DNA of 64,000 bases from a bacterium (GCA_030549815.1 JAUQQQ010000001.1:90873-154872); one strand, 5' to 3'. Positions 3,557 through 62,416 are shown, counted from the first letter of the stretch. Notes: generated from the letters alone by a model not told the origin. A program made the numbers and translations.

Positions 3557-5071
3557 TCATAATTTCTCCCACCGATAATTCATTTTTCTTTTTTTCATAT
3601 CAAAATTCATCCCACATATTATTACTTCACCTTCCAACGCATACTTCCCATAATATTCCCTATCCCTTATTTGTTCTATCGCTTTTTCCTCATCCTTCCC
3701 TACCTTTACTTCAAATATGTATATCTTCCTGTTTGGTGTTCTTACCATTATATCAATTCTTCCTAATTTAGTATGCAATTCTGCATTACATTCAAAACCC
3801 GTTGAATATAAATACACATACAAAAACGACTTTATACTCTTTTCATCACTCCCATATAAATCATATGGTATATTCTCCAACAATCTGTTTATCATGTATT
3901 CTATCTCTTCTAAATCAACATTTTCCAATGCTTTCCTTATTGGATTTATCTCACTATCTTCTCCTCTCCACTCTCTTACAAATTCTCTTAACACATTCTC
4001 ATTAAAACTTATCTGTACTTCCTTATTTGGATATCTCAATTTATAAAAATTCCTATCATACTCTTCTTTTACTTTGTCTATTGTTAAGTATCCCGTTTGG
4101 AACATTAATGCTTCTATACTTATTTTCTCTACATCCACTCTATTCAAATCTTCTTCTGACATCATTAACTCCACATTTGGCATCTCATATTTTTTCTCTC
4201 TTATCAGTTTTATCAATACCTCTGGATTACCTGTCTCATACCAATAACTGCTTTTTTTTCTCTCCTGAAAATACAATAACACATCGAATGGATTGTATAT
4301 TTTACTTCCCAACCACCAATACCCATTATACCACTCTCTTATTTCTAACAACTCTTTTTCACTTTCTATTATTTCCCCAAACACTTCCTCCAATTCCCTT
4401 TCTGTATACCCACATATATCTCCATATTCTTTACTCAAGCTTATATCTCTTAATTGATTTAGTCCACTAAAGAGTGATACTTTTGCAAATTTACTTATCC
4501 CTGTTATAAATACAAAACGTAAATACTGGTCTAAACCCTTTATCGTCTGATAAAATCCTTTCAACACTTCTCTTATTTCTTCCGCTATTCCACTCTTCTC
4601 TATATTATCCAATATCGGCTTATCATATTCATCTATTAACAACACTACTTTTTTTCCTGTCTTTTTGTTTATCTTATAAATTAATTCTGACAGCATTGAA
4701 TAATATAGCTCTTCCTCTATTTCTACTTCATAATTCTTACTCCAAAATTTTATTATCGATTTAATATACCTCTTCATTTCTTCTTTGTTTTCTACCTTCC
4801 CTCCATCAAATGAAAACCTTACCACTGGATACTTTTCTCCCCAATTCCACTTCTTTTCCAAATACAATCCTTCAAATAATTCTTTTTTCCCTTCGAATGC
4901 ACATCGCAATGTATCTACAAACAAGCTTTTCCCGAACCTTCGAGGACGTGATAAAAAATAATATTCTCCTCCTTCTACTAATTTTTTTACAAAACTCGTC
5001 TTATCTACATAATAATATCCCCCTGTCCTTATCTTTTCAAAACTACTTATTCCTATTGGCAATCTCTTCAT
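3557..5071 (-). CDS. AAA-ATPase-like domain protein with C-terminal PD-(D/E)XK nuclease-like domain (PF09820-like + PDDEXK)
   Basis: Family hallmarks are the N-terminal MKRLPIGISSFEKIR..YYVDKT motif and FLSRPRRFGKS. The C-terminal GRIDIMV...IFEVK motif is PD-(D/E)XK-like. The preferred start is ATG 5071, with GAAGGGG 8 nt upstream. Confidence 0.8.
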   Translation of the reverse strand: MKRLPIGISSFEKIRTGGYYYVDKTSFVKKLVEGGEYYFLSRPRRFGKSLFVDTLRCAFEGKKELFEGLYLEKKWNWGEKYPVVRFSFDGGKVENKEEMKRYIKSIIKFWSKNYEVEIEEELYYSMLSELIYKINKKTGKKVVLLIDEYDKPILDNIEKSGIAEEIREVLKGFYQTIKGLDQYLRFVFITGISKFAKVSLFSGLNQLRDISLSKEYGDICGYTERELEEVFGEIIESEKELLEIREWYNGYWWLGSKIYNPFDVLLYFQERKKSSYWYETGNPEVLIKLIREKKYEMPNVELMMSEEDLNRVDVEKISIEALMFQTGYLTIDKVKEEYDRNFYKLRYPNKEVQISFNENVLREFVREWRGEDSEINPIRKALENVDLEEIEYMINRLLENIPYDLYGSDEKSIKSFLYVYLYSTGFECNAELHTKLGRIDIMVRTPNRKIYIFEVKVGKDEEKAIEQIRDREYYGKYALEGEVIICGMNFDMKKRKMNYRWEKL

Positions 5072-5088
5072 CCTACACACCCCTTCTC

Positions 5089-5409
5089 TTACCTATATCT
5101 CTCTACTTCCATCTTTTTCACTCTCCTTCCCCTACTATCTATAACTATTCCCACTAAATATATCTCTTCTCTATCCTTATACTTCTCATGATATCTCTTC
5201 TCTTTTATTTGTTCTATTGCTTCCTCCCTATCCACCTTCATCTCTATTATATACACCTTACCCCTATTTATCACCGTTAAATCTATTCTCCCTATACTTG
5301 TCACATCTTCCACTATTACTTCTAATCCACTTGACACCAACAACACATAAAACAATGCACAATAAAAACTCTCATATCTACCCACATCTCTATACCACAT
5401 ATTTGGCAC
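5089..5409 (-). pseudogene. Detached C-terminal PD-(D/E)XK nuclease-like fragment of the second paralog
   Basis: GRIDLTVINRGKVYIIEMKV...EAIEQI parallels the C-terminus of the 3557-5071 gene. It is separated from the N-terminal part (5477-6622) by a frame break. Confidence 0.55.
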
Positions 5410-5476
5410 ACTTCCATATTTAATACATTTTCCAATTCTAACAATTTACCATCAACAAATATCTTCCTTACTTCTC

Positions 5477-6622
5477 TTACCCCCAACTTTTTCCTGACCA
5501 AATACTACTTCCTATATAACTATTTAATGCTACTTTTACCTCTTTGTTCGGATAGCACAATCTATACTCTAACCAATCTTCTTCTATCATCTCTTTTATT
5601 GTCAAATATCCTGTTTGAAATAATAACGCTTCTATCCTTATTTCTTCTATATCAAACATATCTAATACATTATCATCTACTACTACTTCTTCTAAATTCG
5701 GTATATAGTACCCCTTCTCCCTCATAACTTTTACTAAAAATTCTGGGGTGGGGTCCCCTTCCCCTGGATTACCCGTTTTAAACCAATACGACCTATATAC
5801 TCTATTTTCCATATACAACAACACATCAAATGGATTATATATCCTTGAACCTAACCAATAATACCCATTGTACCACTCCCTTATTTTCTCTAATTCTTCC
5901 TTCCCTTCTATTAACTCTCCAAATACCTTTAATAATTCTTCCTCTGTATACCCACATATATCTCCATATTCTTTACTCAAGCTTATATCTCTTAATTGAT
6001 TTAGTCCACTAAAGAGTGATACTTTTGCAAATTTACTTATCCCTGTTATAAATACAAAACGTAAATACTGGTCTAAACCCTTTATCGTCTGATAAAATCC
6101 TTTCAACACTTCTCTTATTTCTTCCGCTATTCCACTCTTCTCTATATTATCCAATATCGGCTTATCATATTCATCTATTAACAACACTACTTTTTTTCCT
6201 GTCTTTTTGTTTATCTTATAAATTAATTCTGACAGCATTGAATAATATAGCTCTTCCTCTATTTCTACTTCATAATTCTTACTCCAAAATTTTATTATCG
6301 ATTTAATATACCTCTTCATTTCTTCTTTGTTTTCTACCTTCCCTCCATCAAATGAAAACCTTACCACTGGATACTTTTCTCCCCAATTCCACTTCTTTTC
6401 CAAATACAATCCTTCAAATAATTCTTTTTTCCCTTCGAATGCACATCGCAATGTATCTACAAACAAGCTTTTCCCGAACCTTCGAGGACGTGATAAAAAG
6501 TAATACTTACCTTCTTCCTCCAACTTTTTTACAAAATGTGTCTTTGGGGTAGGGGTCCCCCAATTTTCTACATAATAATATCCTCCTGTTCTTATCTCCA
6601 TAGAGGGACCCCTACCCCACAA
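5477..6622 (-). pseudogene. Disrupted paralog of the AAA-ATPase-like/PD-(D/E)XK gene (N-terminal ATPase-like part), carrying GC-rich mini-insertions
   Basis: Near-identical to the 3557-5071 protein over its FLSRPRRFGKS...YNGY region. The ancestral ATG (~6673) reads into a stop after an inserted GGGGTAGGGGTCCC element. Further in-frame insertions encode NWGTPTP and GEGDPTP. Confidence 0.6.
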
Positions 6623-21592: not shown

Positions 21593-23659
21593 ATGAGAAA
21601 ATATTTAATAATTTTGATTGCTTTGTTATTAATATTAACCTGTAAAACAGCTTTTTCCAAAAACTTACATAATCCTCATAGGTTAATAGCAAATGATACA
21701 AAACAAAGTGAAATAAAAAATGAAATATACCAAAATTCAAATAATCGAGAAAAAGAACAAACAAATAAAGAAATTTATGAAATAGCAGTAGAAAAAATTA
21801 TTATTAAGGGTAATAAAAATATACCAACAAGCACAATATTAGAAAACATCAACATAAAAGAAAATACAAAAATAAGCGTAGAAGAAATAAAAAATGCAAT
21901 CAATAGGATCTACGAAACTGGCTATTTTTCAGATATCGAAGTAAATTTTGAACCAGTAGATAAAGAAAAAGTCAATTTAGTTTTTTATCTTTTAGAAAAT
22001 CCTCAAGTTAAAACAATCCAATTCATCGGTAACAAAATACTTTCATCTCTCGATTTAATTGAAATAATAAACACAAGACCCGGTAAGGTTCTAAACTATA
22101 ATGTCATAAGAGAAGACATTATTTTAATCAACGAAGAATACAATAAATTAGGGTTTGTTGGTGTTAAAAATCACGTATCAGATTTACAAATAAAAGATGA
22201 TGGAACACTAATATTTTACATTCAAGAAGCATTCTACCCTAAAAAAATAAACATAATCGGCAATAAAGTGATAAAAACAGAAAAACTACAAAAATTAGTA
22301 GAAATTAAACCTAATGAACCATTAAAGAAAGAACAATTAGAAAACACTCTTAACAAGATATATGAATACTACCAAGAAGAAGGATATATGTTAGCAGATA
22401 TTAGATCAGACATAGATTATGAAAATAATATATTAAATATAGAAATCTTTGAGGCAATATTAGAAGATATAGAAGTTGAAGGAAATACAAAAACCAAAAA
22501 ATATGTTATTGAAAAAATGTTAGAATTAGAAAAAGGTAAAGTAATAAATTCATACAAGTTAAAGAGAGCACTTAGGAAAATGCAATTGGGAGGATACTTT
22601 AAAAATGTTGAGCCTGATTTTAGAGGAGGAAGTGAACCTGGTAAAGTCATACTCGTTATCAAAGTAGAAGAACAACAAACAGGACAATTAGTCCTGGGAG
22701 TCGGCTTCGGAGGACTACCTGGAAGCAATCGAGGAGGATTGGCAGGAAGTTTATCAGTGTCAGAAATAAACTACAAAGGCAAAGGACAACAAATATACAC
22801 AAGCTGGGAAAGAGGTACTTTAATAAATAGCATATCACTATCTTTTTCGGATCCTTATACTTTACCAAACAATAGATTTTATGGGTTTAATATACAATCT
22901 ACTGAATTGTTCCAACAAAGAGCCCTTGTTAATACAAATCCTCAAACTATTGCTTTATACAAAGATTATAGAAGAAACTATGGTTTCTTTTTTGGTAAAA
23001 GATTAATAGATAGAAACATGACTTACAACTTTAATCTTTCATTTTTAACTTTTAAAACATCTCCTACTCCAACACAGGAAAATCCTTACGTTTTACCATC
23101 AACAAAAGGTGATTATATTTCGTTAGGTACCTCTTTAACAAAAGATAACAGAGATGATGAATTTTATCCAACAAGAGGAGTATTATATACCTTATCAACA
23201 GACCATGCAATAAAAAACCAAGGAAATTTAAGTAGTTTTTCAAGAATTTCAGGAGAATACAGGAAATACTTCAATTTCAAAAAAGAAAGAGTATTGGCTA
23301 TAAGGGGATTTTTTGGTTTAGCAACAGATAAAACGCCTTTTGTATATCAATATACCTTGGGAGGATCAGATACATTGAGAGGATATGATTTCAATAGATT
23401 CATAGGAAATAAAGCATTCCTTATAAACTTAGAATATAGATTTCCAATAAGTAAGAAGTTAGAAAACTTCTATGGAGCAGCATTTATAGATTGGGGAGGA
23501 GCATTCTTACCAAACCAAAAAATAAGCTTAGATAAAATGGGATTTAATTACGGTGTTGGTATAAGATTCATACTACCTCAAATCGGTTCTATAAGATTAG
23601 ATTACGCTATATCCAATGAAAAATCAAAAATATCAGTCGGTATAGGACAAATGTTCTAA
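21593..23659 (+). CDS. bamA: Outer membrane protein assembly factor BamA/Omp85 family
   Basis: Signal peptide, then repeated POTRA-like modules (..IKNAINRIYETGYFSDIEVNFEP...) and a C-terminal beta-barrel ending in aromatic-rich strands (GIGQMF). Confidence 0.8.
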   Translation: MRKYLIILIALLLILTCKTAFSKNLHNPHRLIANDTKQSEIKNEIYQNSNNREKEQTNKEIYEIAVEKIIIKGNKNIPTSTILENINIKENTKISVEEIKNAINRIYETGYFSDIEVNFEPVDKEKVNLVFYLLENPQVKTIQFIGNKILSSLDLIEIINTRPGKVLNYNVIREDIILINEEYNKLGFVGVKNHVSDLQIKDDGTLIFYIQEAFYPKKINIIGNKVIKTEKLQKLVEIKPNEPLKKEQLENTLNKIYEYYQEEGYMLADIRSDIDYENNILNIEIFEAILEDIEVEGNTKTKKYVIEKMLELEKGKVINSYKLKRALRKMQLGGYFKNVEPDFRGGSEPGKVILVIKVEEQQTGQLVLGVGFGGLPGSNRGGLAGSLSVSEINYKGKGQQIYTSWERGTLINSISLSFSDPYTLPNNRFYGFNIQSTELFQQRALVNTNPQTIALYKDYRRNYGFFFGKRLIDRNMTYNFNLSFLTFKTSPTPTQENPYVLPSTKGDYISLGTSLTKDNRDDEFYPTRGVLYTLSTDHAIKNQGNLSSFSRISGEYRKYFNFKKERVLAIRGFFGLATDKTPFVYQYTLGGSDTLRGYDFNRFIGNKAFLINLEYRFPISKKLENFYGAAFIDWGGAFLPNQKISLDKMGFNYGVGIRFILPQIGSIRLDYAISNEKSKISVGIGQMF

Positions 23660-40540: not shown

Positions 40541-41854
40541 ATGAGATTTATAGGAAGGATAGAACATTTTGGAAGCCTTATATATGATACAGAAAGAAAA
40601 GAATACATACCGATAGATCAAGACGGAACTAACATAATTCTTAATGTATCTTCTAACGTTGACCTAGAAACACTTTATTACAAATATTTTTCACATAGAT
40701 TTAGTTATCTTAATTTTAAAAGTTTCTTACAACTAATACAGTCAATAGAAATGATAGATAAGGACTATAATTCTAACGTTGTTTTTTTAGAAAACTCTGA
40801 TTTGGAATTTTTTTTGAATAATAAATTCATTTCTGCTCCTTTAAAAGTTCATATTGCTCTTACATACGAATGTCATCTAAAATGTAGGCACTGTTTCTCT
40901 AATTCTGGTAAAAAAAGTGAAGAAGAAAAAAATTCAGAATTATCACCGGAAAAAATTATGGAATTTTTAGATGAAATAAAAGAAAATGGTGTATTTTACG
41001 TTTCATTTGGAGGAGGAGAACCATTCTTGAAAAAAGAATTCATAGAAATACTAAAAAAAGCAAATCAGAATAAAATGAATATTTCCATTTCCACATCACT
41101 AAGCAGTATAAACGCAAAGCAAATCATAGAAACAATGCAAAAAGAGAATATAAAAATTCAGGAATTCAAAATATCTGTGGAGGCAGTAAATTCAAAAGAA
41201 TACACCAATGTAAGAGGAAAAAATCTATTTGAAAATCTAAAGAACAATTTACAATTAATAATCAATTATAAAAAAGAAAATGATACTTTTATTAGATTTT
41301 CATTTGTTCTTAACAAACAAAACTATAGTTTTTTACCTAATTTTCTAAGTTTTGCAGAGCAATACAGTGCTGACGGATTAGTATTCTATCCAATTTACAA
41401 CGTAGGAAGAGCACAAGAACATCCTGAATCATTCCTTACAAACCAAGAATTAGAAAAAATTCAAAGGATGATTAATAACATGAAAGAAAGAACAAAAATA
41501 GAGATAGAATTTTTTAATATTCCCCTAAAATTCGGTAAAAACGGTTTGTATAACAATTTTGGATGTGGATGTGGTAAGACAACTATTTACTTAGATCCTT
41601 ACGGTAATATCCTACCTTCAGGAATGTTTATTAAATATGGTAGCAAATTTTCATTAGGTAATATAAAGGAAAAAAAATTCAAAGAAATATGGAAAGAAAA
41701 TGTAGAAAAAGAGCTCAACAAAATTGAAGCTGATCCTAAATGTAACAATTGTATGTATTTTGAAGAATGTAAAGGCGGATGTATGTTTAGATCTTTTGAT
41801 AAATATCAAAAATTATCTTATAAAGACCCCACTTGTACAATCAATCCCTTATAA
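40541..41854 (+). CDS. Radical SAM enzyme with C-terminal SPASM domain and N-terminal RRE-like extension (peptide-modifying maturase-like)
   Basis: CHLKCRHC is the CX3CX2C radical-SAM cluster motif, with GGGEPF (SAM glycine motif). The C-terminal CGCGK...CNNCMYFEECKGGC Cys-rich region is SPASM-type. About 100 aa precede the core and resemble PqqD/RRE (GSLIYDTERKEY...DGTNIIL). Confidence 0.75.
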   Translation: MRFIGRIEHFGSLIYDTERKEYIPIDQDGTNIILNVSSNVDLETLYYKYFSHRFSYLNFKSFLQLIQSIEMIDKDYNSNVVFLENSDLEFFLNNKFISAPLKVHIALTYECHLKCRHCFSNSGKKSEEEKNSELSPEKIMEFLDEIKENGVFYVSFGGGEPFLKKEFIEILKKANQNKMNISISTSLSSINAKQIIETMQKENIKIQEFKISVEAVNSKEYTNVRGKNLFENLKNNLQLIINYKKENDTFIRFSFVLNKQNYSFLPNFLSFAEQYSADGLVFYPIYNVGRAQEHPESFLTNQELEKIQRMINNMKERTKIEIEFFNIPLKFGKNGLYNNFGCGCGKTTIYLDPYGNILPSGMFIKYGSKFSLGNIKEKKFKEIWKENVEKELNKIEADPKCNNCMYFEECKGGCMFRSFDKYQKLSYKDPTCTINPL

Positions 41855-41857
41855 TCT

Positions 41858-42454
41858 ATGAAAGAAAATATTTATATTATTTTACAAGACATAAATTTTC
41901 TTATAGAAAAATTAGAAAATCAAGAAACTAATGAAGAATTACAAAATATAATTAAGGAAGCAAAAAGTATTATAAACCAAATAAATAAAGCGTTAGAAGA
42001 GAATAATGAAAAAGAAATCTACAAAAAACTCCTTGAATTAAAAGTTTTAGAATTTAAAATAATATTCCAAGAGGTAAAGGAAACAAATTTTTACAAATTC
42101 TGGGAAACTCTCATTAACAACATAAAAAAAAATATGGTAACCAGTGAAGAGCTTTATGAATTTTATAAGAACGAAATGAATAAACTCTTAATAAATGCTG
42201 AAATAATTTCTAACATATTAATCTTAGAAGATGAAGATATTGTATTTAGGACTATATTAGACATAATGTTTGGTGAAGCATTTAAAAGTTACTATCAAGT
42301 ACTTCAAAAATTACATGAATATATATTCAAAAATAATCCCTCGCTTTTAGATGAAATAAAGGAAGATTTGCCATTGGTAATCTTCTATTTTTTACAAATA
42401 CAAAAGCTAATCCCTGAAGAATATTCAGAAAACGTGGAAAGGTTATTAGAATAG
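41858..42454 (+). CDS. Hypothetical acidic helical protein (co-oriented with rSAM gene)
   Basis: The ORF starts 4 nt after the rSAM stop. No motif found. Confidence 0.45.
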   Translation: MKENIYIILQDINFLIEKLENQETNEELQNIIKEAKSIINQINKALEENNEKEIYKKLLELKVLEFKIIFQEVKETNFYKFWETLINNIKKNMVTSEELYEFYKNEMNKLLINAEIISNILILEDEDIVFRTILDIMFGEAFKSYYQVLQKLHEYIFKNNPSLLDEIKEDLPLVIFYFLQIQKLIPEEYSENVERLLE

Positions 42455-42455
42455 T

Positions 42456-43298
42456 ATGAAAAAAGTAGTAGGATTCATTGGGTTATGTAAAAATGTTGGA
42501 AAAACAACCTTTCTTAATAAATACATAAAAGAAAAAGAAAAGTATTTAATAACGAGTATAGGATGGGATGGAGAAGCAATTGATCATATTTTTGGAATAA
42601 AAAAACCATCCATATTCGTAAAAGAAGGTTCATCTGTTTGTACTTATAGCAATCTAAAACCTACAAAATCAGAAAAAATATCAGAGTTACCTATAGAAAA
42701 TCAGTTTTTAGGTAAATTGGAGATATACCGAATGAAAGAAAACGATATAGTTCAGGTAGCAGGTCCTTCTTCAATTACACAACTTAAAACTTTTCTAAAA
42801 TTTGCCGAAAATTTAGAAATCAGCGAAATAATAATTGACGGAGCTGCCGATAGAAGAATAACCCTTTCAGTTTCAAACGAAATTTTTTATATATGTGGGC
42901 CAACATATTCACAAAATGAACAAAAATTAATTAGAACAATAATTGGAATCATCGAAATGTTTAATATACCTATTATGGAACATGGTCAACAATTTATAGA
43001 AATAAAATCAATCAACAAAACAAATATCAACACATTGGATGAAAACCAAAAATATTTAATTGAAGATTTTAGTAAAATAGTTATGGATTATGAATTAATA
43101 CCAAAAGTTTTAAAAAAATTCAAGATATTTGTAAAAAAGAAACCTGAAAAGTTAAACATTGTAATCAATTCGTTTAATGCAGACCTTATGAAACACACTT
43201 TAAATACATTAAAAATAAAAGAGGAAGTAGGCCAGTTAATTGGTAGCACTAATATCATAGAGATTATAGAGCTTAATGTTAACACCTCTACACTGTAA
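42456..43298 (+). CDS. P-loop NTPase, possibly dethiobiotin-synthetase/CobQ-like fold
   Basis: GLCKNVGKTT is a Walker A near the N-terminus. IIIDGAADRR around residue 125 resembles the DTBS VEGAGG segment. It starts 2 nt after the previous stop. Confidence 0.4.
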   Translation: MKKVVGFIGLCKNVGKTTFLNKYIKEKEKYLITSIGWDGEAIDHIFGIKKPSIFVKEGSSVCTYSNLKPTKSEKISELPIENQFLGKLEIYRMKENDIVQVAGPSSITQLKTFLKFAENLEISEIIIDGAADRRITLSVSNEIFYICGPTYSQNEQKLIRTIIGIIEMFNIPIMEHGQQFIEIKSINKTNINTLDENQKYLIEDFSKIVMDYELIPKVLKKFKIFVKKKPEKLNIVINSFNADLMKHTLNTLKIKEEVGQLIGSTNIIEIIELNVNTSTL

Positions 43299-43346
43299 TA
43301 CATGGATTTTTGTTCTTCACCGAAGCAAACATATTTTTTCTTCTTC

Positions 43347-43371
43347 AAAGGGAGGGCATGCCCACCCTTTC
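43347..43371. terminator. Bidirectional terminator hairpin between convergent genes
   Basis: aaagggagggcatgcccaccctttc is a near-perfect GC-rich palindrome centred on gcatgc, flanked by A/T runs. It lies between convergent stops at 43298 and 43412. Confidence 0.5.
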
Positions 43372-43411
43372 TTATTGCTCATTAAAGCAATTATATTACC
43401 CTGTAAGTAAA

Positions 43412-43942
43412 TTAAACCAAAGTACTTCCACCTCGGTAAAGGGGTGATGACCAACTACCTCCACCTCGGTATGCCAAAACTGTCATTTCAGAATAATCAC
43501 TATGGAAATATCCCCAACTATCACCAAAATTACTTACGAAGTTAGAAAAGCTCATTGAAAAATTTGAAGCAAAGTTCATGGTAGATTGATAAAATCCACT
43601 CATGTTAGAAACAAGGGAATTAAATGAGTTATTTAAGAAGTTTGCTCCAAAAGAAAAAGATGATATAGCGTTAAAACCAGCATTCGCAATATTATTAACA
43701 TTCAAATTATTAACTATATTGTTGAAATTAAAAGAATTAAAAGATGCTTGCATTATGTTTGAAAAGCTGCTGTTAGAAATATGCATGCTATTAAAATTAA
43801 TGTTCTTAAAATTGAAATTATTGCTGCTAACAAACTTATCTTTTATTTTTTGCTTAAACGAGAAATGGACATTATTCTTGTTCATCTTAAAATGCGTCTT
43901 CATTGCACACATGTTATGTCCTAATCCTTTTATCTTGCACAT
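43412..43942 (-). CDS. Asn/Ser/Phe-rich low-complexity repeat protein (candidate RiPP precursor or structural protein)
   Basis: Strong SD AGGAGGTG lies 8 nt upstream of ATG 43942. 176 aa with a basic N-terminus (MCKIKGLGHNMCAMKTHFKMNKNN..) followed by dozens of F-x-S/F-x-N/N-F-N triads. No signal peptide. C-terminus YRGGGSWSSPLYRGGSTLV. Confidence 0.6.
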   Translation of the reverse strand: MCKIKGLGHNMCAMKTHFKMNKNNVHFSFKQKIKDKFVSSNNFNFKNINFNSMHISNSSFSNIMQASFNSFNFNNIVNNLNVNNIANAGFNAISSFSFGANFLNNSFNSLVSNMSGFYQSTMNFASNFSMSFSNFVSNFGDSWGYFHSDYSEMTVLAYRGGGSWSSPLYRGGSTLV

Positions 43943-44134
43943 ATAAATCACCTCCTATTAATAATATAAAAAAATAGTTTAGAAAAGGTATAAAACTTCG
44001 AATTGTTTTACAAAATTTTTACATGCTTTCCTGAGCTTTTTTTACATTATTTTTAACATTTTTTTTACATTTTATTTTTATCTTTTCTAACTTTTTTAGC
44101 ATTTACGTTATTTTGTCAAAAAATTAACAAGAAA

Positions 44135-46392
44135 CTAAAAACTCCAGTTTAATCCCAGAAAAATACTCTTTTTATAGCCAGGATACCTTGTCATAGGACG
44201 AGATAAATCTAAACTAAGTGGACAATCATATTTTGTATTAAATAAGTTATTAACGTAAAGAGTAAAATATTTATTTTGGTCGATATAATAACGTAAGGTT
44301 AAATTTGCGAGCCAATATGATTTTATTTTTTTCTCTGGTTCTGGAAAAACACCTTGACTTACCAACCAAGCCCAACCATCACTATTTATTAACCTCCTGT
44401 AATCATCAACTAAAACATCTGAAGTATATTTTAATTCAAAAGCAACAGATAAATTATTTGTAATATTTTGTCCATATTTTGCAAGTAGCAATAATTTAGG
44501 GGAATTTGGCAAGTATTCAAATATACCAGGAATTCCCTTAGTTACTCTAACGTTAGAATATGAAGCAGAAAATCTAATAAATTTTCTATGAGAAAACTGA
44601 TAAACATAATCTAAAAAAGCCCCTGTACTTTCTAAATTTCCATAACTTTTAAATACAAGCACACTTTCATCATAAGAAGCATCACCTGTAGTATCCGCTA
44701 AAGCACTATACTCATTTATTAGATTAGTTATCTTTGTAGAAAATACAGAAAAAGTAAAATAACTATTAACGTTTCTTTTTTTATATTCAGAATAGTATAT
44801 TAACTCCAGTGTTCTATGTCTTTCCGGAAATATTGATATGTCTTCGTTGGGTGCAAGATAATAACTCCACGTTCCATTTTCAATAACTTCATTGAAAAAT
44901 GGGAATCTTATATTTTGGGAATATATCAACTTTATAGCTTTATTATCCTTAATTTTCTTAATTATACCTATATTTGGAATAACTGCTGGTTTCGCATAGA
45001 TATTTTTTATTTGAAAAACATATCCTGTGCTAGTTACCTGGGAAAAGTTTTTATACATATTGGAATAATCATCATATCTTGCCCCTAAAGCTAAAATTAA
45101 ATCGTCCTTCAAATAATAATCCATATGAAAATACAAGGAAAAAAGGTTAAAGTATCTTTTCCCATTTACAAATTCAATTACAATATTCCTTTCTAAAGGG
45201 TTCAAATCTGAGTATAAAGATTCATAGGTATTAAATGAAAAACTCGATCTTTTCCATTCTAAACCCATCAACAATTCCCCTTTTTTAAATTTATAATAAA
45301 AATCATTTTCTACGGAAAAAATGTTATTTTTAAGCGAAGACACTGCCATACCCCAGTAACCAAGAATCATATTTGAAAAATTCGGTTCATAAACAGCTTC
45401 CTGATGTACACCATAAGAATAATAAGATAACTTTGTTATTATTTTTGAATTAGATGAAAGGTTAAACTTTCTTTCATAAAAAATAAACCTATTTCTATCA
45501 TTCCCAAACGAATAAGGGCTATTTATAAGATAAAAATACCCGCGGGATGGAAAATGATACCTCGATTGATAATCTATATATCCAAATTTTTCCGCTTCAT
45601 TATACAAGTAAAGAGCAAAATTAGAAGAGTAAGATCTATCAGAATAGTATAATCTATCATCTATTACAAAACCAAAATTAGGCAATGTAAAATCATTTAT
45701 GATTTTTTCTCAGGAAAGAAAATTTCTCTACCTTTGTAATTAACAAAATCCCACGACAAACTAAAATAATAATTACCAATTTTTTTATTAATCATGAATC
45801 CATTGTTGTTATTGATTTTATTATCATAGAAACTAAAATAACTATAGGTTTTGAAAACAGTATCCTTATAATAATCATCTTTATAGTACTTAAAGGATGG
45901 TATTAGATTTATTGTAGCAAGTAATGAATTGCTTCCAAAGTACACATTTGAATATCCATGGACTATCTCCAAAGCATGTACATAATTAGAAGGAATATTA
46001 ATAGGATATCCAGAGAAATAATTGTTTATTTGGTATCCATCAAATAAGAATAAAGATCTGGAGTTTATTGAGCCCGGTATTTGTATACCTCTATTTCCCA
46101 GGGACCAGTAAGTACCGTTATCTATAACATACAAACCTGGAGAAAAGTTTAGCAACGTTTTTAAATCAGGGTAATAAAAAAATCTTAGCTCCAAAGGCTG
46201 AACTAAAGATATAGTAGCAGCTGACTCTAATACACTCTTTGTGTATTTTGTAGAACTTTGAACAGTATTTATAAATTCTGTCTCCTCCATTATATATTCC
46301 TTATCATCTATCTCAGAAAAAGAGCTTTTTATACATATAAGAAAAAACGATAAAATAAAAATTAATGTTCTCAACTTTATAACCAACTTCAA
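44135..46392 (-). pseudogene. TonB-dependent receptor (plug + beta-barrel) interrupted by a frameshift in an A7 homopolymer
   Basis: The 45697-46392 ORF has a signal peptide and plug domain (NIPSNYVHALEIVHGYSNVYFGSNSLLATINLIP). The 44135-45685 ORF is the barrel, ending ...LGLNWSF. The frames overlap at the gagaaaaaatca tract (45703-45709) and ±1 nt fuses them. Confidence 0.65.
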
Positions 46393-46404
46393 TCCCTCCC
46401 AAAA

Positions 46405-47316
46405 TTATCTTTGATAATTCTTTTCAATGATAACAAACTTTTCTGGAAAAACATTTTCATACTTTATCTTCTTTAGTCCATAATTTTTAATAAAATCAAT
46501 AACTTCAAAAGCTAAATTCCCATAATCAAGAGCATAAACTATATCAACTCCATAGTTTAACAGAATTTTCTGAGTTGAAATTAACAATTTGTCTTTTCTT
46601 TTACAATAATAAATTAGTTTCAAAAGATTGTCTTCGTCAAGTACAAATACATCAGGTAGTAAAAATATAACATCAAATTTATCCAAAATTTCATCTATCT
46701 TATCCACATTGTAATTATTAACATTTATAGGATAAACGTTCAGTCCTTCTTTTTTACCAACATCCACCGCATACTTAACACTATACCCTCCTAAGTTGTA
46801 TATTATACCAACATTATTTTTATCAGGATATCTATTTTTTATGTCTCTAAACACTAATAGAAAATCTGGATAAGGGTAAAATACCACTACTCCTGAAGGT
46901 ACACCGATAACCTCGGGAGATAAAACCAAACACCATATATTTAAAGCTTTCCTATTAAAATTTTCCTTTGATAGATTAGCACCTTCACTCGCTATAGAAA
47001 TAACAACATCATATTTCATTAAATCATATTTTCTAATATCTTTAATACCAATAACATCACAATCATTTTTTCCGTAATAATTTACAAAATTGTCAACAAA
47101 AGATTTTACAACCTGATTTTCCTGCCCCATTAAAAGAGCGACCTTATATGTTTTTTGATCCCTAACTACAGACTGTGAAATATATATTTCATTTTTTGAA
47201 AATTCAAAAAGACTGCTAATAAAAGAATAGTAATCATCTTCATAATCATCTTCAGCAAAAACAGTAAAAGATAAAAAAAAGAATAATGTTAATAAAAAAA
47301 ATAAACTTCTATTCAT
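46405..47316 (-). CDS. Secreted/periplasmic substrate-binding-like protein (possibly ABC_sub_bind-type)
   Basis: Signal peptide MNRSLFFLLTLFFFLSFTVFA. An alpha/beta periplasmic-binding-like pattern is seen; family assignment tentative. Confidence 0.4.
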   Translation of the reverse strand: MNRSLFFLLTLFFFLSFTVFAEDDYEDDYYSFISSLFEFSKNEIYISQSVVRDQKTYKVALLMGQENQVVKSFVDNFVNYYGKNDCDVIGIKDIRKYDLMKYDVVISIASEGANLSKENFNRKALNIWCLVLSPEVIGVPSGVVVFYPYPDFLLVFRDIKNRYPDKNNVGIIYNLGGYSVKYAVDVGKKEGLNVYPINVNNYNVDKIDEILDKFDVIFLLPDVFVLDEDNLLKLIYYCKRKDKLLISTQKILLNYGVDIVYALDYGNLAFEVIDFIKNYGLKKIKYENVFPEKFVIIEKNYQR

Positions 47317-47335: not shown

Positions 47336-47656
47336 TTATATATTATCTTCCAGAAATTTAATTAATTCTTTTTTAGATATAAAGCCAACAATATTATTAA
47401 CAACTTTTCCATTTTTGAAAAGTAGTAAGGTTGGTATTCCACTTATGTAATATCTTTGTGCTATTTCTATATTATCGTCGGTATTAATTTTGACGAATTT
47501 CACTTTTCCTTGATATTCTTTAGCAACTTCTTCGAAGATTGGTTCAAGCATTTTACAGGGCATACACCATGGAGCCCAAAAATCGACCAATACAGGAACA
47601 GGACTATTTAAAACTTCATTTTCAAAAGTATTCTGTCCTACATGAATTACAGCCAT
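47336..47656 (-). CDS. trxA: Thioredoxin (variant CMPC active site)
   Basis: VLVDFWAPWCMPCKML with typical Trx fold length (106 aa) and cis-Pro region GIPTLLLF. Confidence 0.8.
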   Translation of the reverse strand: MAVIHVGQNTFENEVLNSPVPVLVDFWAPWCMPCKMLEPIFEEVAKEYQGKVKFVKINTDDNIEIAQRYYISGIPTLLLFKNGKVVNNIVGFISKKELIKFLEDNI

Positions 47657-47748
47657 AAACTTCCCCCTATTACATTAAATATTTCAATTATTTTTTTCTA
47701 TAAAACCATTAACTACCCTTCTAATAGAAATGAACTTATTAAGGACCT

Positions 47749-48267
47749 CTATTTCTTTTTTTCAGCCATTTGCATAATTTTATCTTTAACAATATTATAT
47801 ATACCTCCTCCTATTGTGGCTCCTAATATTCCGCCTATAGGACCCCCTAACATAGCTCCAGCAGTTGTCAATAATGCAATATTAAAGAAATCTATAACAC
47901 CATGTTTTACTCCATCCAATCCCTTAAGAACTCCACCCAAACAAGCTACTTTCATTCTATTTTCTTTGTCAACGCCAACATCCTTAGCTGCAAGGTAACT
48001 ATTTATAGCTCCACTAAAAGCACCATATCCCATAACTAAAAATGGATAATAAATGCCCGACGCCAAGGTAAGAGTTCCTTTTAACATACCCTTTGCAAAA
48101 GAATCAAGAGTGCTTCTTTCATATCTATCCGCCTCAATACTTACTTCTTTTTTACCTTTCGGCCCTTTAATAAGCATGCTTTTCTCTTTTATCTCAACAA
48201 AATCATTTAAACCTTTTTTCTCTACAGATAATATTTCAAATTTTTGATTGATTTTATTAACTTCCAT
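47749..48267 (-). CDS. Hypothetical protein with C-terminal glycine-zipper membrane segment
   Basis: The C-terminal GAMLGGPIGGILGATIGGGIY is a GxxxG repeat. The N-terminal domain is soluble. Confidence 0.45.
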   Translation of the reverse strand: MEVNKINQKFEILSVEKKGLNDFVEIKEKSMLIKGPKGKKEVSIEADRYERSTLDSFAKGMLKGTLTLASGIYYPFLVMGYGAFSGAINSYLAAKDVGVDKENRMKVACLGGVLKGLDGVKHGVIDFFNIALLTTAGAMLGGPIGGILGATIGGGIYNIVKDKIMQMAEKKK

Positions 48268-48469
48268 CTAAAAGCACCTCCTTTTGTTTTAATCTCATCT
48301 TTGTTTGTAACCTTAAAAACAATAAAAATACAATAATAATTTAAAAAAAAAATGTTAAATTCAGCAATTATTTAATTATTATTCACAAAACAATAAAAAG
48401 ATTAAAAAATTTTGGAAAGGTAATTTTTGAAAATTATAAAAATAGAAAATGTAAAGGGAGGAAAAAAAT

Positions 48470-60359: not shown

Positions 60360-61392
60360 TTCCTCATTAAAAATAGCTATCTTCGCCGTAAACAAATCCC
60401 TTTATGAATTAATAAACAAAAAAAACATTACCTCATTTGACAATATTGAAAATGCAATAGAAGAAAATATTAACCTCTTCATAGACAATAAAGTAGATGT
60501 TTTTGTTCATAGAGTTGTTCATGGTTTAGACTACAAAAATCCTTTCCTTATAAATGATGAAACCATAAAAACTTTGGAATATCTTGCAAAGATTAATCCC
60601 TTACATAACGAATTAGCTTTAAAAGGTATAAAAAAGTTGAGGTCAACTTTCAAGGAAAAACTACACTATGCATTATTTGATACATATTTTCATAATTCCA
60701 TTCCTTCTTATGCCAAAGTATATGGAATAAGTTTAGATTTCTTTAGAAGTGGAGTAAAGAGGTATGGCTTTCATGGAATTTCCTATTCCTACATAGTTCG
60801 AAAAATGAAAGAGATTTTAAACAAAGAAAAAGTTGATTTAATCGTTTTACATTTGGGTGCAGGATGTAGTATATGTGCAATAAAAGAAAACAAAAGCATA
60901 GAAACATCTATGGGATTCTCACCTTTAGAAGGGCTGATAATGCAAAAAAGAAGTGGGGATATGGATATAGGGGTCGTTTTTCATCTCATCCAAAATGGCT
61001 TTAAACCTTTCGACTTTTATTCAAAATGTGGATTTACAGCAATGGCAAATGTTAAAAATTTTATAGAATTAGAAGAAAAATATAAAGCAGGTAATGATGA
61101 TGCAGTATTAACTATGAACGCTTTCGTCCATAGGTTAGTAAAATACATCGGATCATACTATGTTTTGCTTGAAAATTTAGATGGTATCGTATTTACAGGA
61201 GGAATTGGAGAAAATAGCTGGCTATTAAGAAATTTAGTTTGTGAAAAATTGAAAAAAATAGGAATTGAATTAAATGAAGAAAAAAACAAAAATAATGAAC
61301 TTTTAATCTCAACAAGTAAAAGTAAAATCAATGTTTTTGTCATAAAAACAGAGGAAGAAGAGGAAATGGTAAGGATTACTGCCCAACAGTGA
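60328..61392 (+). CDS. ackA: Acetate (or butyrate) kinase
   Basis: NYGSSSLK (phosphate 1), VHRVVHG, FDTYFHNS, RYGFHGISYSY, LHLGAGCSICAIKENKSIETSMGFSPLEG and IVFTGGIGENS. Overlaps the xfp end by 32 nt. Confidence 0.85.
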   Translation: MKIYSALNYGSSSLKIAIFAVNKSLYELINKKNITSFDNIENAIEENINLFIDNKVDVFVHRVVHGLDYKNPFLINDETIKTLEYLAKINPLHNELALKGIKKLRSTFKEKLHYALFDTYFHNSIPSYAKVYGISLDFFRSGVKRYGFHGISYSYIVRKMKEILNKEKVDLIVLHLGAGCSICAIKENKSIETSMGFSPLEGLIMQKRSGDMDIGVVFHLIQNGFKPFDFYSKCGFTAMANVKNFIELEEKYKAGNDDAVLTMNAFVHRLVKYIGSYYVLLENLDGIVFTGGIGENSWLLRNLVCEKLKKIGIELNEEKNKNNELLISTSKSKINVFVIKTEEEEEMVRITAQQ

Positions 61393-62416
61393 ATAATCCA
61401 TAACTCAGTCTTGTTTTCGAACCAACACCATAAAATCCTAAAGCTTTCTCTAATAGCTGTTTTATACTTCCTTCTTTCTCCTCTCCTTCTTTTATAAAAT
61501 CATCCACTTTCTCAACAGTTTTATGATCTATTTTCTTCCAAATTTCATCATCGCTTAGATTATTATTGGATTTATTCTTAATTTTACTTTTAATATTGTC
61601 CCACCTGTGTCGATCAAAGAAAACAACAAATCTAAATCCAATCCCTTTCTTTACAGTGATAAAAAAGATTGGATTAGGATTGTCGGATTCAACTGGATAT
61701 TCTACTTGTTCAGAGTAATATGATGGATAATGAACATTCATAACATCAATATCAAATAGATTTTGATTTATAGAAGGGAAAGCATCGAGAAACAGCAAAA
61801 GCCCCTTAAAATCTTGAGCACCAAATAGCAATTGGTAAAACTGAATCTCCAAATCACCTTCATCTTTAACCTCGCTTAATTGATCATTAAATTTTTCACT
61901 TACATTAAGACCATATTTTTCAAAGATTTTCCAAAAGGCTACACTTCTGCAAACACCTTTAATAGATGTTGATGGTATGTAAGGGATACCATAAGTTCGA
62001 TGCAAGGTTATAGAGGTTTCAAGGACACTGGAAGAGCCTAAACCACAAATTAAGCGAGTCTTGGTCTTTAATTCTTTGTCAAAAATTTTTAAATACCCCT
62101 GATTTTTTAAACCATTACAAATGTTATCTATATCCTTGTAAAATGGTAATCTATCAAAATCTTCCTTTTTAATACTCAATTTAGATATTTTTTTGAAAAA
62201 GTCTTTTTTTACTCTATTATCGAAAACAATATTTCCATCTTTTTCAGATAAAGGAATAAATTTTTCCAATAACAAAGAAAAATTTAGATTATTTCCTTTT
62301 TGTTCGCTTAAATCTTTCCAGATACCTTCAAAATGTCTATTTACAAAGATTTCTTTATTTTGGTTATGTTTATTTTCCTTACTGTGTGTTTTTCCTTTAT
62401 GATCTTTATGATTCAT
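61376..62416 (-). CDS. cmr6: Type III CRISPR-Cas RAMP subunit Cmr6-like
   Basis: RLICGLGSSSVLETSITLHRTYGIPYIPSTSIKGVCRS fits the Cmr6 GLG...G.PYIPGSSlKG..R core. The C-terminal G-rich loop is LGFYGVGSKTRLSYGLF. It is the last gene of the operon, as in III-B. Confidence 0.75.
   Translation of the reverse strand: MNHKDHKGKTHSKENKHNQNKEIFVNRHFEGIWKDLSEQKGNNLNFSLLLEKFIPLSEKDGNIVFDNRVKKDFFKKISKLSIKKEDFDRLPFYKDIDNICNGLKNQGYLKIFDKELKTKTRLICGLGSSSVLETSITLHRTYGIPYIPSTSIKGVCRSVAFWKIFEKYGLNVSEKFNDQLSEVKDEGDLEIQFYQLLFGAQDFKGLLLFLDAFPSINQNLFDIDVMNVHYPSYYSEQVEYPVESDNPNPIFFITVKKGIGFRFVVFFDRHRWDNIKSKIKNKSNNNLSDDEIWKKIDHKTVEKVDDFIKEGEEKEGSIKQLLEKALGFYGVGSKTRLSYGLFTVGQ

Follow-up and report, generated by a model that had tools for sequence, protein, structure and literature searches.

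TonB-dependent outer-membrane transporters such as FepA, PirA, FrpB and BtuB (Pfam families PF00593 and PF07715) have in common a signal peptide, an N-terminal plug, a large beta-barrel and a C-terminal phenylalanine. In Neisseria the reading frame of some surface receptors (hmbR and hpuAB) is set by the length of a poly-G tract inside the open reading frame (ORF); the tracts of the phase-variable haemoglobin receptors hmbR and hpuA range from G4 to G19, mostly G9-G13, and some 35-40% of the isolates are OFF (PMC3786947). Also known are the homopolymer frameshift pseudogenes of AT-rich bacteria, where one base is lost from an A/T run of a dispensable gene that stays intact in relatives. The receptor gene described here shares with the Neisseria genes a frame that depends on the length of a homopolymer within the ORF, and with the frameshift pseudogenes the one-base loss from an A/T run, the intact relatives and the dispensability. 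Nevertheless, the Neisseria tracts are long and vary between isolates, whilst the run in question is an A7, invariant in eight other assemblies and not conserved in orthologs.

The gene lies in a 64-kb stretch of bacterial DNA, 29.2% in G+C (hereafter, the window), where a single TonB-dependent transporter of 750 amino acids (aa) is spread over two ORFs of the minus strand that lie in different frames, at 45697-46392 and 44135-45709. An earlier note on this DNA had proposed exactly this, a single receptor split by a homopolymer frameshift, and both the Pfam matches and the 95% identity of the repaired protein to an intact 750-aa ortholog bear it out, as they do its estimate of about 750 aa for the fused product. 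Three-frame translation places the overlap of the frames at 45697-45712 (minus strand), as had been claimed. The upstream frame is closed by a TAA at 45697-45699, two codons past an adenine run, so the plug ORF does end at 45697 (...GREIFFPEKKS-TAA); the downstream frame is bounded on its 5′ side by a TGA at 45710-45712, and its first start codon is indeed at 45685 (ORF 44135-45685, minus strand). The two frames share CCTGAGAAAAAATCATAA, with the codons reading CCT GAG AAA AAA TCA TAA. Where the earlier note erred is the length of the run, given as A7/T7 at 45703-45709: the plus strand has T at 45703-45708 only and C at 45709, which makes six bases (A6 on the coding strand), and the very string quoted in that note, 'gagaaaaaatca', has six a's. 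The downstream frame is −1 relative to the upstream one, and, when all homopolymers were edited by +1 and −1, the frame was regained by adding one A (i.e., A7) and not by removing one, although a loss of two would also do; the contention that adding or removing one A fuses the frames is therefore right in its first half only. The run codes for Lys227-Lys228, and in its intact form it also provides the first base of Ile229. The repaired product runs from a TTG at 46386 to a C-terminus ...LNWSF. This TTG (46384-46386), which aligns with the GTG of the orthologs and is preceded by GGGAGGG, is the likely start; between 46384 and 46392 a 1-nt indel and the TTG in place of GTG set the window apart from its relatives, the GGGAGGG ribosome-binding site being kept in both. 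In the annotation of the source genome the 3′ fragment appears as a 516-aa protein (P0018).

The assignment of the repaired protein to the TonB-dependent transporters is sound. Residues 252-717 match the barrel family (TonB_dep_Rec_b-barrel, PF00593) at 7.4e-16. The match of the window allele to the Plug family (PF07715) is weak (2.2e-4, 22.1 bits against a Pfam cut-off of 23.9); this family is precomputed on most homologs and absent from the closest ortholog (P0001), and the structure alignments between the ortholog's model and the Protein Data Bank (PDB) span the full length, plug included. In the AlphaFold model of this 95%-identical ortholog (pLDDT 68, pTM 0.74) the plug occupies about residues 58-162 and a strand-rich barrel residues 177 to 749, and all of its top 50 PDB matches by Foldseek (50/50) are TonB-dependent transporters, with E-values down to 8e-25 and TM-scores of about 0.6, among them PirA, Fiu, FepA, PfeA, FrpB and BtuB. 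Compared to the solved transporters the receptor is very divergent, at 12-16% identity, and, unlike them, its gene is interrupted in the window genome. Its N-terminus is a signal peptide (LVIKLRTLIFILSFFLICIKSSFS) and its C-terminus, ...LGLNWSF, ends in an aromatic residue. Between the signal peptide and the plug lies a motif, E-x-x-F-I-x-T-V (EETEFINTV), with E35 and F38 invariant in 14 homologs, that resembles a TonB box. The break at Lys227-Lys228 falls in a low-confidence loop of the model (residues 218-250), past about the third barrel strand, leaving to the 5′ fragment the signal peptide, the TonB-box-like motif, the plug and about the first three strands, and to the 3′ fragment the remaining 19 or so, with no signal peptide of its own. 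Two halves acting as a working split receptor were considered and rejected, with the break coming after about the third strand and the 3′ ORF having no signal peptide. No NCBIfam subfamily reaches its cut-off for the receptor, and since scans of the window for Rfam families and tRNAs returned no matches, there is no riboswitch to hint at the substrate. Genes for TonB, ExbB and ExbD are absent from the window ORFs scanned; that the organism has an outer membrane follows from BamA, encoded at 21593-23659.

The receptor is preceded on the minus strand by a 172-aa ORF with no assigned function (47749-48267), a thioredoxin of 106 aa without signal peptide (47336-47656; PF00085 at 4.8e-33) and a secreted protein of 303 aa (46405-47316), and is followed by a 179-aa, low-complexity ORF rich in N, S and F (43412-43951). 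It does not, then, head the unit as the earlier note had it, although the same note was right about the CMPC motif of the thioredoxin (WCMPC), about the secreted binding-like protein and about the position of the receptor upstream of the N/S/F-rich gene. This last ORF matches no family, but its 85% aa identity in relatives (176 aa in one of them, L008) makes it likely to be a real gene. The 303-aa protein has a signal peptide and, in its model, a type-I periplasmic-binding-protein fold; Pfam and NCBIfam return no match for the window protein itself, whilst its homolog P0061 matches PF04392 (ABC_sub_bind) with an E-value of 7.5e-6, and the best PDB matches of the model, which is of moderate confidence (pLDDT 68), are 3lkv, 6hni and 3lft. 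It would thus resemble PF04392 proteins such as CD0873 of C. difficile and those of S. pneumoniae (3LFT) and V. cholerae (3LKV), which are likewise secreted and of this fold, but differs from them in being paired with an outer-membrane receptor. In two distant metagenome-assembled genomes (MAGs; L002 and L003), homologs of 40-45% identity immediately precede the receptor ortholog, and, judging from this conserved order, the 303-aa protein is the conserved upstream partner of the receptor. The thioredoxin is adjacent to this pair in the window; the co-occurrence in the two distant MAGs covers the pair only. Promoter and terminator scans gave 44 sites against 34 expected and are uninformative in DNA so rich in AT.

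Other parts of the window hold some further observations. A radical-SAM/SPASM protein (437 aa) followed by two ORFs (198 and 280 aa) lies on the plus strand at 40541-43298, converging on the receptor locus; these could form a peptide-modification cluster. At 3557-6622 (minus strand) are tandem paralogs with AAA-ATPase_like and PDDEXK_9 domains, of which one copy (3557-5080) is intact at 507 aa and the other (5477-6622) stops at 381 aa, with its C-terminal part in another frame (5089-5409) and stops between. The copies are 100% identical over residues 57-227, which could be due to gene conversion or to assembly collapse. A RAMP-domain gene of CRISPR-Cas type (61376-62416, minus strand) at the end of the window has an indel at about 61759, where relatives carry 15 additional bases, an in-frame duplication of GATTTTGATT-like sequence.

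A comparison with related genomes, as advised in the earlier note, is what places the break in time. A search with the repaired protein found the intact 750-aa P0001, at 95% identity over 100% of the query, whose DNA reads CCC GAG AAA AAA ATC ATA, with seven adenines (A7) against the six of the window; with one A added, the junction of the window, GREIFFPEKKIINDFTLPNFGFV, is identical to that of this ortholog. Contigs of the same species, gathered through the neighbouring thioredoxin and PorA, are 98.1-98.3% identical to the window in nucleotides over 9.6 kb. The species also occurs in SRR277300xx and ERR14373512. The site is covered by eight further assemblies of the species, every one of them with A7 and an intact gene, which leaves A6 to the window alone: at DNA level (L001/L009, L008, L010, L011 and L015, from JGI 3300022541, SRR28170336, ERZ27245615, JGI 3300009585 and GCA_041640495.1) they read CCCGAGAAAAAAATCAT where the window reads CCTGAG-AAAAAATCAT, and three more (P0021, P0022 and P0023) are known as 750-aa proteins. 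The intact genes of the species encode ...FFPEKKIINDF..., which is what the window encodes after the addition of one A. Within the 90% protein cluster, P0021 to P0023 are intact and the only fragment is the window's own P0018, and only one assembly showed the window-type allele around the break. A metagenome pattern scan permitting A6 to A8 returned a single contig (15,883 bp, already in the comparison), which has A7. Orthologs at 45-50% identity (L002 and L003) have KER or NER at the site and no homopolymer. Representative genomes gave no match in a contig scan with a single ortholog, and only distant relatives in a profile scan, including uncultured MAGs and one 'Candidatus Calescibacterium sp.', so the window's species is not among them. 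Relatives that also carry a split gene, which the earlier note took for the mark of a fixed pseudogene, were not found: those covering the site are intact. This speaks against an old fixed pseudogene; the lesion is young and confined to one strain, unless it is an error.

The substitutions in the gene tell the same story. The receptor genes of the window and L008 give a dN/dS of 0.145, or 0.12 for the part before the break and 0.16 for the part after it, and a ratio of about 0.14 on both sides of the break means that the lesion is recent or an artefact. Out of 33 amino acid differences beyond residue 30, polarised with 13 outgroups, 9 are derived in the window, 11 in the ortholog and 13 are ambiguous. 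Once repaired, the gene has no second lesion, and no sign of relaxed constraint (more lesions, raised dN/dS or a lineage-specific excess) was found in it. Judging from these sequence comparisons, the receptor gene was under purifying selection until very recently and, if a pseudogene, it is a very young one, which sets it apart from the frameshift pseudogenes mentioned above.

The region around the receptor is anything but stable. From 43.0 to 47.0 kb the window differs from its relatives by 15-46 SNPs per 500 bp (3-9%), against 0-6 (0-1%) in the flanks, and dS is 0.12-0.17 in the binding-protein and receptor genes, which form a divergent allele, against 0-0.03 in the flanking lysS, cdsA and porA. 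P0021 and P0022, from other samples, are mosaics of two receptor allele types. This hypervariable island (43000-47000) suggests recombination or diversifying selection on a surface module. Furthermore, two independent samples of the same species, L020 (SRR23854658) and L025 (SRR17794512), share an identical and clean deletion of 3436 bp (43514-46949 of the window, mapped against L020 5437 and L025 4365), with the junction GGAAATATCC|TATTAAAA and a TCC microhomology, which takes away the receptor entirely, along with the 5′ part of the N/S/F-rich ORF on one side of it and, on the other, 60% of the 303-aa gene at its 3′ end. An identical 3.4-kb deletion in two samples implies that the species tolerates the loss of the receptor module; within the population, the receptor gene varies and can be dispensed with. 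L020 additionally lacks 47738-48403, with the 172-aa ORF, and just downstream of the receptor the relatives have about 930 bp more than the window (window 44041-44055 versus L008 9617-10545), a segment that holds an ORF of 94-123 aa.

The interpretation we favour, and consider probable, is a loss of function in this TonB-dependent outer-membrane transporter gene, recent and specific to the strain from which the window comes. Slippage during replication would have dropped one A from an ordinary A7 (AAA-AAA-A, Lys-Lys-Ile), and translation would now end two codons past the run, yielding a product of 229 aa with the signal peptide, the plug and about three strands, and leaving a remainder of about 19 strands without an obvious export route. 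Since some three strands make no barrel and the remainder would not be exported, the receptor should be off in this genome, with neither fragment likely to be functional. The receptor and the secreted binding protein would form a pair within a hypervariable and dispensable island of surface proteins, where loss of the receptor may be tolerated or even favoured, for example under phage or bacteriocin pressure via the receptor. The closest competitor to this interpretation is a sequencing or assembly artefact, with a true A7 and an intact gene, the base having been lost in the consensus or the assembly having followed a minor or erroneous path through a strain-heterogeneous region. Much of the above would fit it: what is missing is a single base in a homopolymer, whose restoration gives a perfect match at the junction and leaves no other defect; the low dN/dS, the symmetric substitutions and the lack of a second lesion are as expected of a working gene; the A6 allele is seen in one assembly only; and hypervariable, multi-strain loci are where metagenome assemblers err. 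We nevertheless consider an artefact unlikely, given how indels are distributed. Over 38-62 kb, nearly all indels relative to the relatives are outside coding sequence, mostly in A/T runs. Two exceptions leave their genes unbroken: an indel of 15 bp that keeps the frame, and a change in the 280-aa gene, at its 3′ end. Where at least two relatives cover the coding sequence, which amounts to about 17 kb, no indel other than that of the receptor breaks a frame. When one-base edits were applied to all homopolymers in the 64 kb, in search of non-neighbour long ORFs that they would join, no other gene split by a single indel was found. Random homopolymer errors would mostly strike coding sequence, which makes up about 94% of the window, so the assembly is not error-prone and has no general homopolymer problem; the distribution is the one expected of real mutations filtered by selection, rather than of a noisy assembly. 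Besides, the source contig, of about 200 kb, would be more typical of a short-read metagenome bin, and in such bins consensus errors at an A7 are rare. Together with the demonstrable dispensability of the gene in the species, this points to a biological deletion rather than a consensus error.

A switch is another reading of the same deletion, and the earlier note had offered 'pseudogene or phase-variable switch' as its alternatives. Of these it is the pseudogene that the evidence favours, and evolved phase variation, with the A-run as a contingency tract whose frequent changes in length switch the receptor between on (A7) and off (A6/A8), seems improbable. It is true that this is a homopolymer frameshift in a surface receptor gene, reversible by one slippage event, at a locus clearly under diversifying or loss pressure, and that a switch too would leave the gene otherwise pristine, without a second lesion or a rise in dN/dS. 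The tract, however, is quite ordinary: the 64 kb contain 117 A/T runs of at least 7 (about 1.8 per kb), the receptor gene alone has about eight runs of 6 and five of 7, the four other than this one lying at gene offsets 204, 600, 1605 and 2055, and the tract, no longer than this background, is simply Lys-Lys-Ile in a gene of AAA-biased usage (38 AAA against 11 AAG). Moreover, its length is invariant in the eight other assemblies, and orthologs of 45-50% identity have no run at the site. That length variability would be visible in such a comparison is shown by an intergenic run 2.6 kb away (48343-48352), which serves as an internal positive control, as it varies in the same loci: A10 in the window, A9 in most relatives, and A8, TA8 or TA7 in others. 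This run, between lysS and the divergent cluster of the 172-aa ORF and the thioredoxin, likely lies in the promoter region of the cluster that contains the receptor. A working contingency tract in which an A7 slips often enough in a deep-branching, AT-rich hot-spring lineage, and of which the window is the OFF state, is more doubtful still; such a lineage may lack efficient mismatch repair, and the receptor may be a target of phages or bacteriocins. Hardly credible, in turn, is recoding, by which the A6 allele would still give some full-length receptor through −1 slippage on G-AAA-AAA or the gain of an A during transcription. A-runs are known slippage sites in AT-rich genomes, and, reasoning from the sequence, the ...EKKIIN... 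of the ortholog would be recreated if the ribosome slipped by −1 on the second AAA or if the mRNA gained an A. Against this, G-AAA-AAA is not a canonical X-XXY-YYZ heptamer and a run of six adenines is short for the polymerase to slip on efficiently; no structure lies downstream (fold z-score −0.55), the only hairpin being a weak AU stem that overlaps the run; and all relatives read through in frame, so that no ortholog needs a shift. A programmed −1 ribosomal frameshift was rejected on all these grounds, i.e., heptamer, stimulatory RNA structure and conservation in relatives.

The host of this putative loss-of-function allele is probably an uncultured hot-spring bacterium. Its G+C content and relatives would be compatible, and this is a guess, with populations of the 'Pyropristinus type 2 / Thermoproauctor' or Calescibacterium type; for the former, from Octopus Spring, 27-29% G+C is reported, on Illumina MAGs (PMC4791363; PMC11696919). 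On the side of annotation, two ORFs of this genome, one of them deposited as a 516-aa protein, are to be read as a single frameshifted receptor gene. If mixed tract lengths were to be found after all, the biology of contingency loci would extend to an uncultured, free-living (hyper)thermophile, although the present evidence points away from it. What the locus does offer is a binding-protein/receptor module of which intact, mosaic, frameshifted and deleted alleles occur in one hot-spring species that is otherwise near-clonal, and such a mix of alleles is characteristic of a surface receptor on which selection fluctuates or acts antagonistically.
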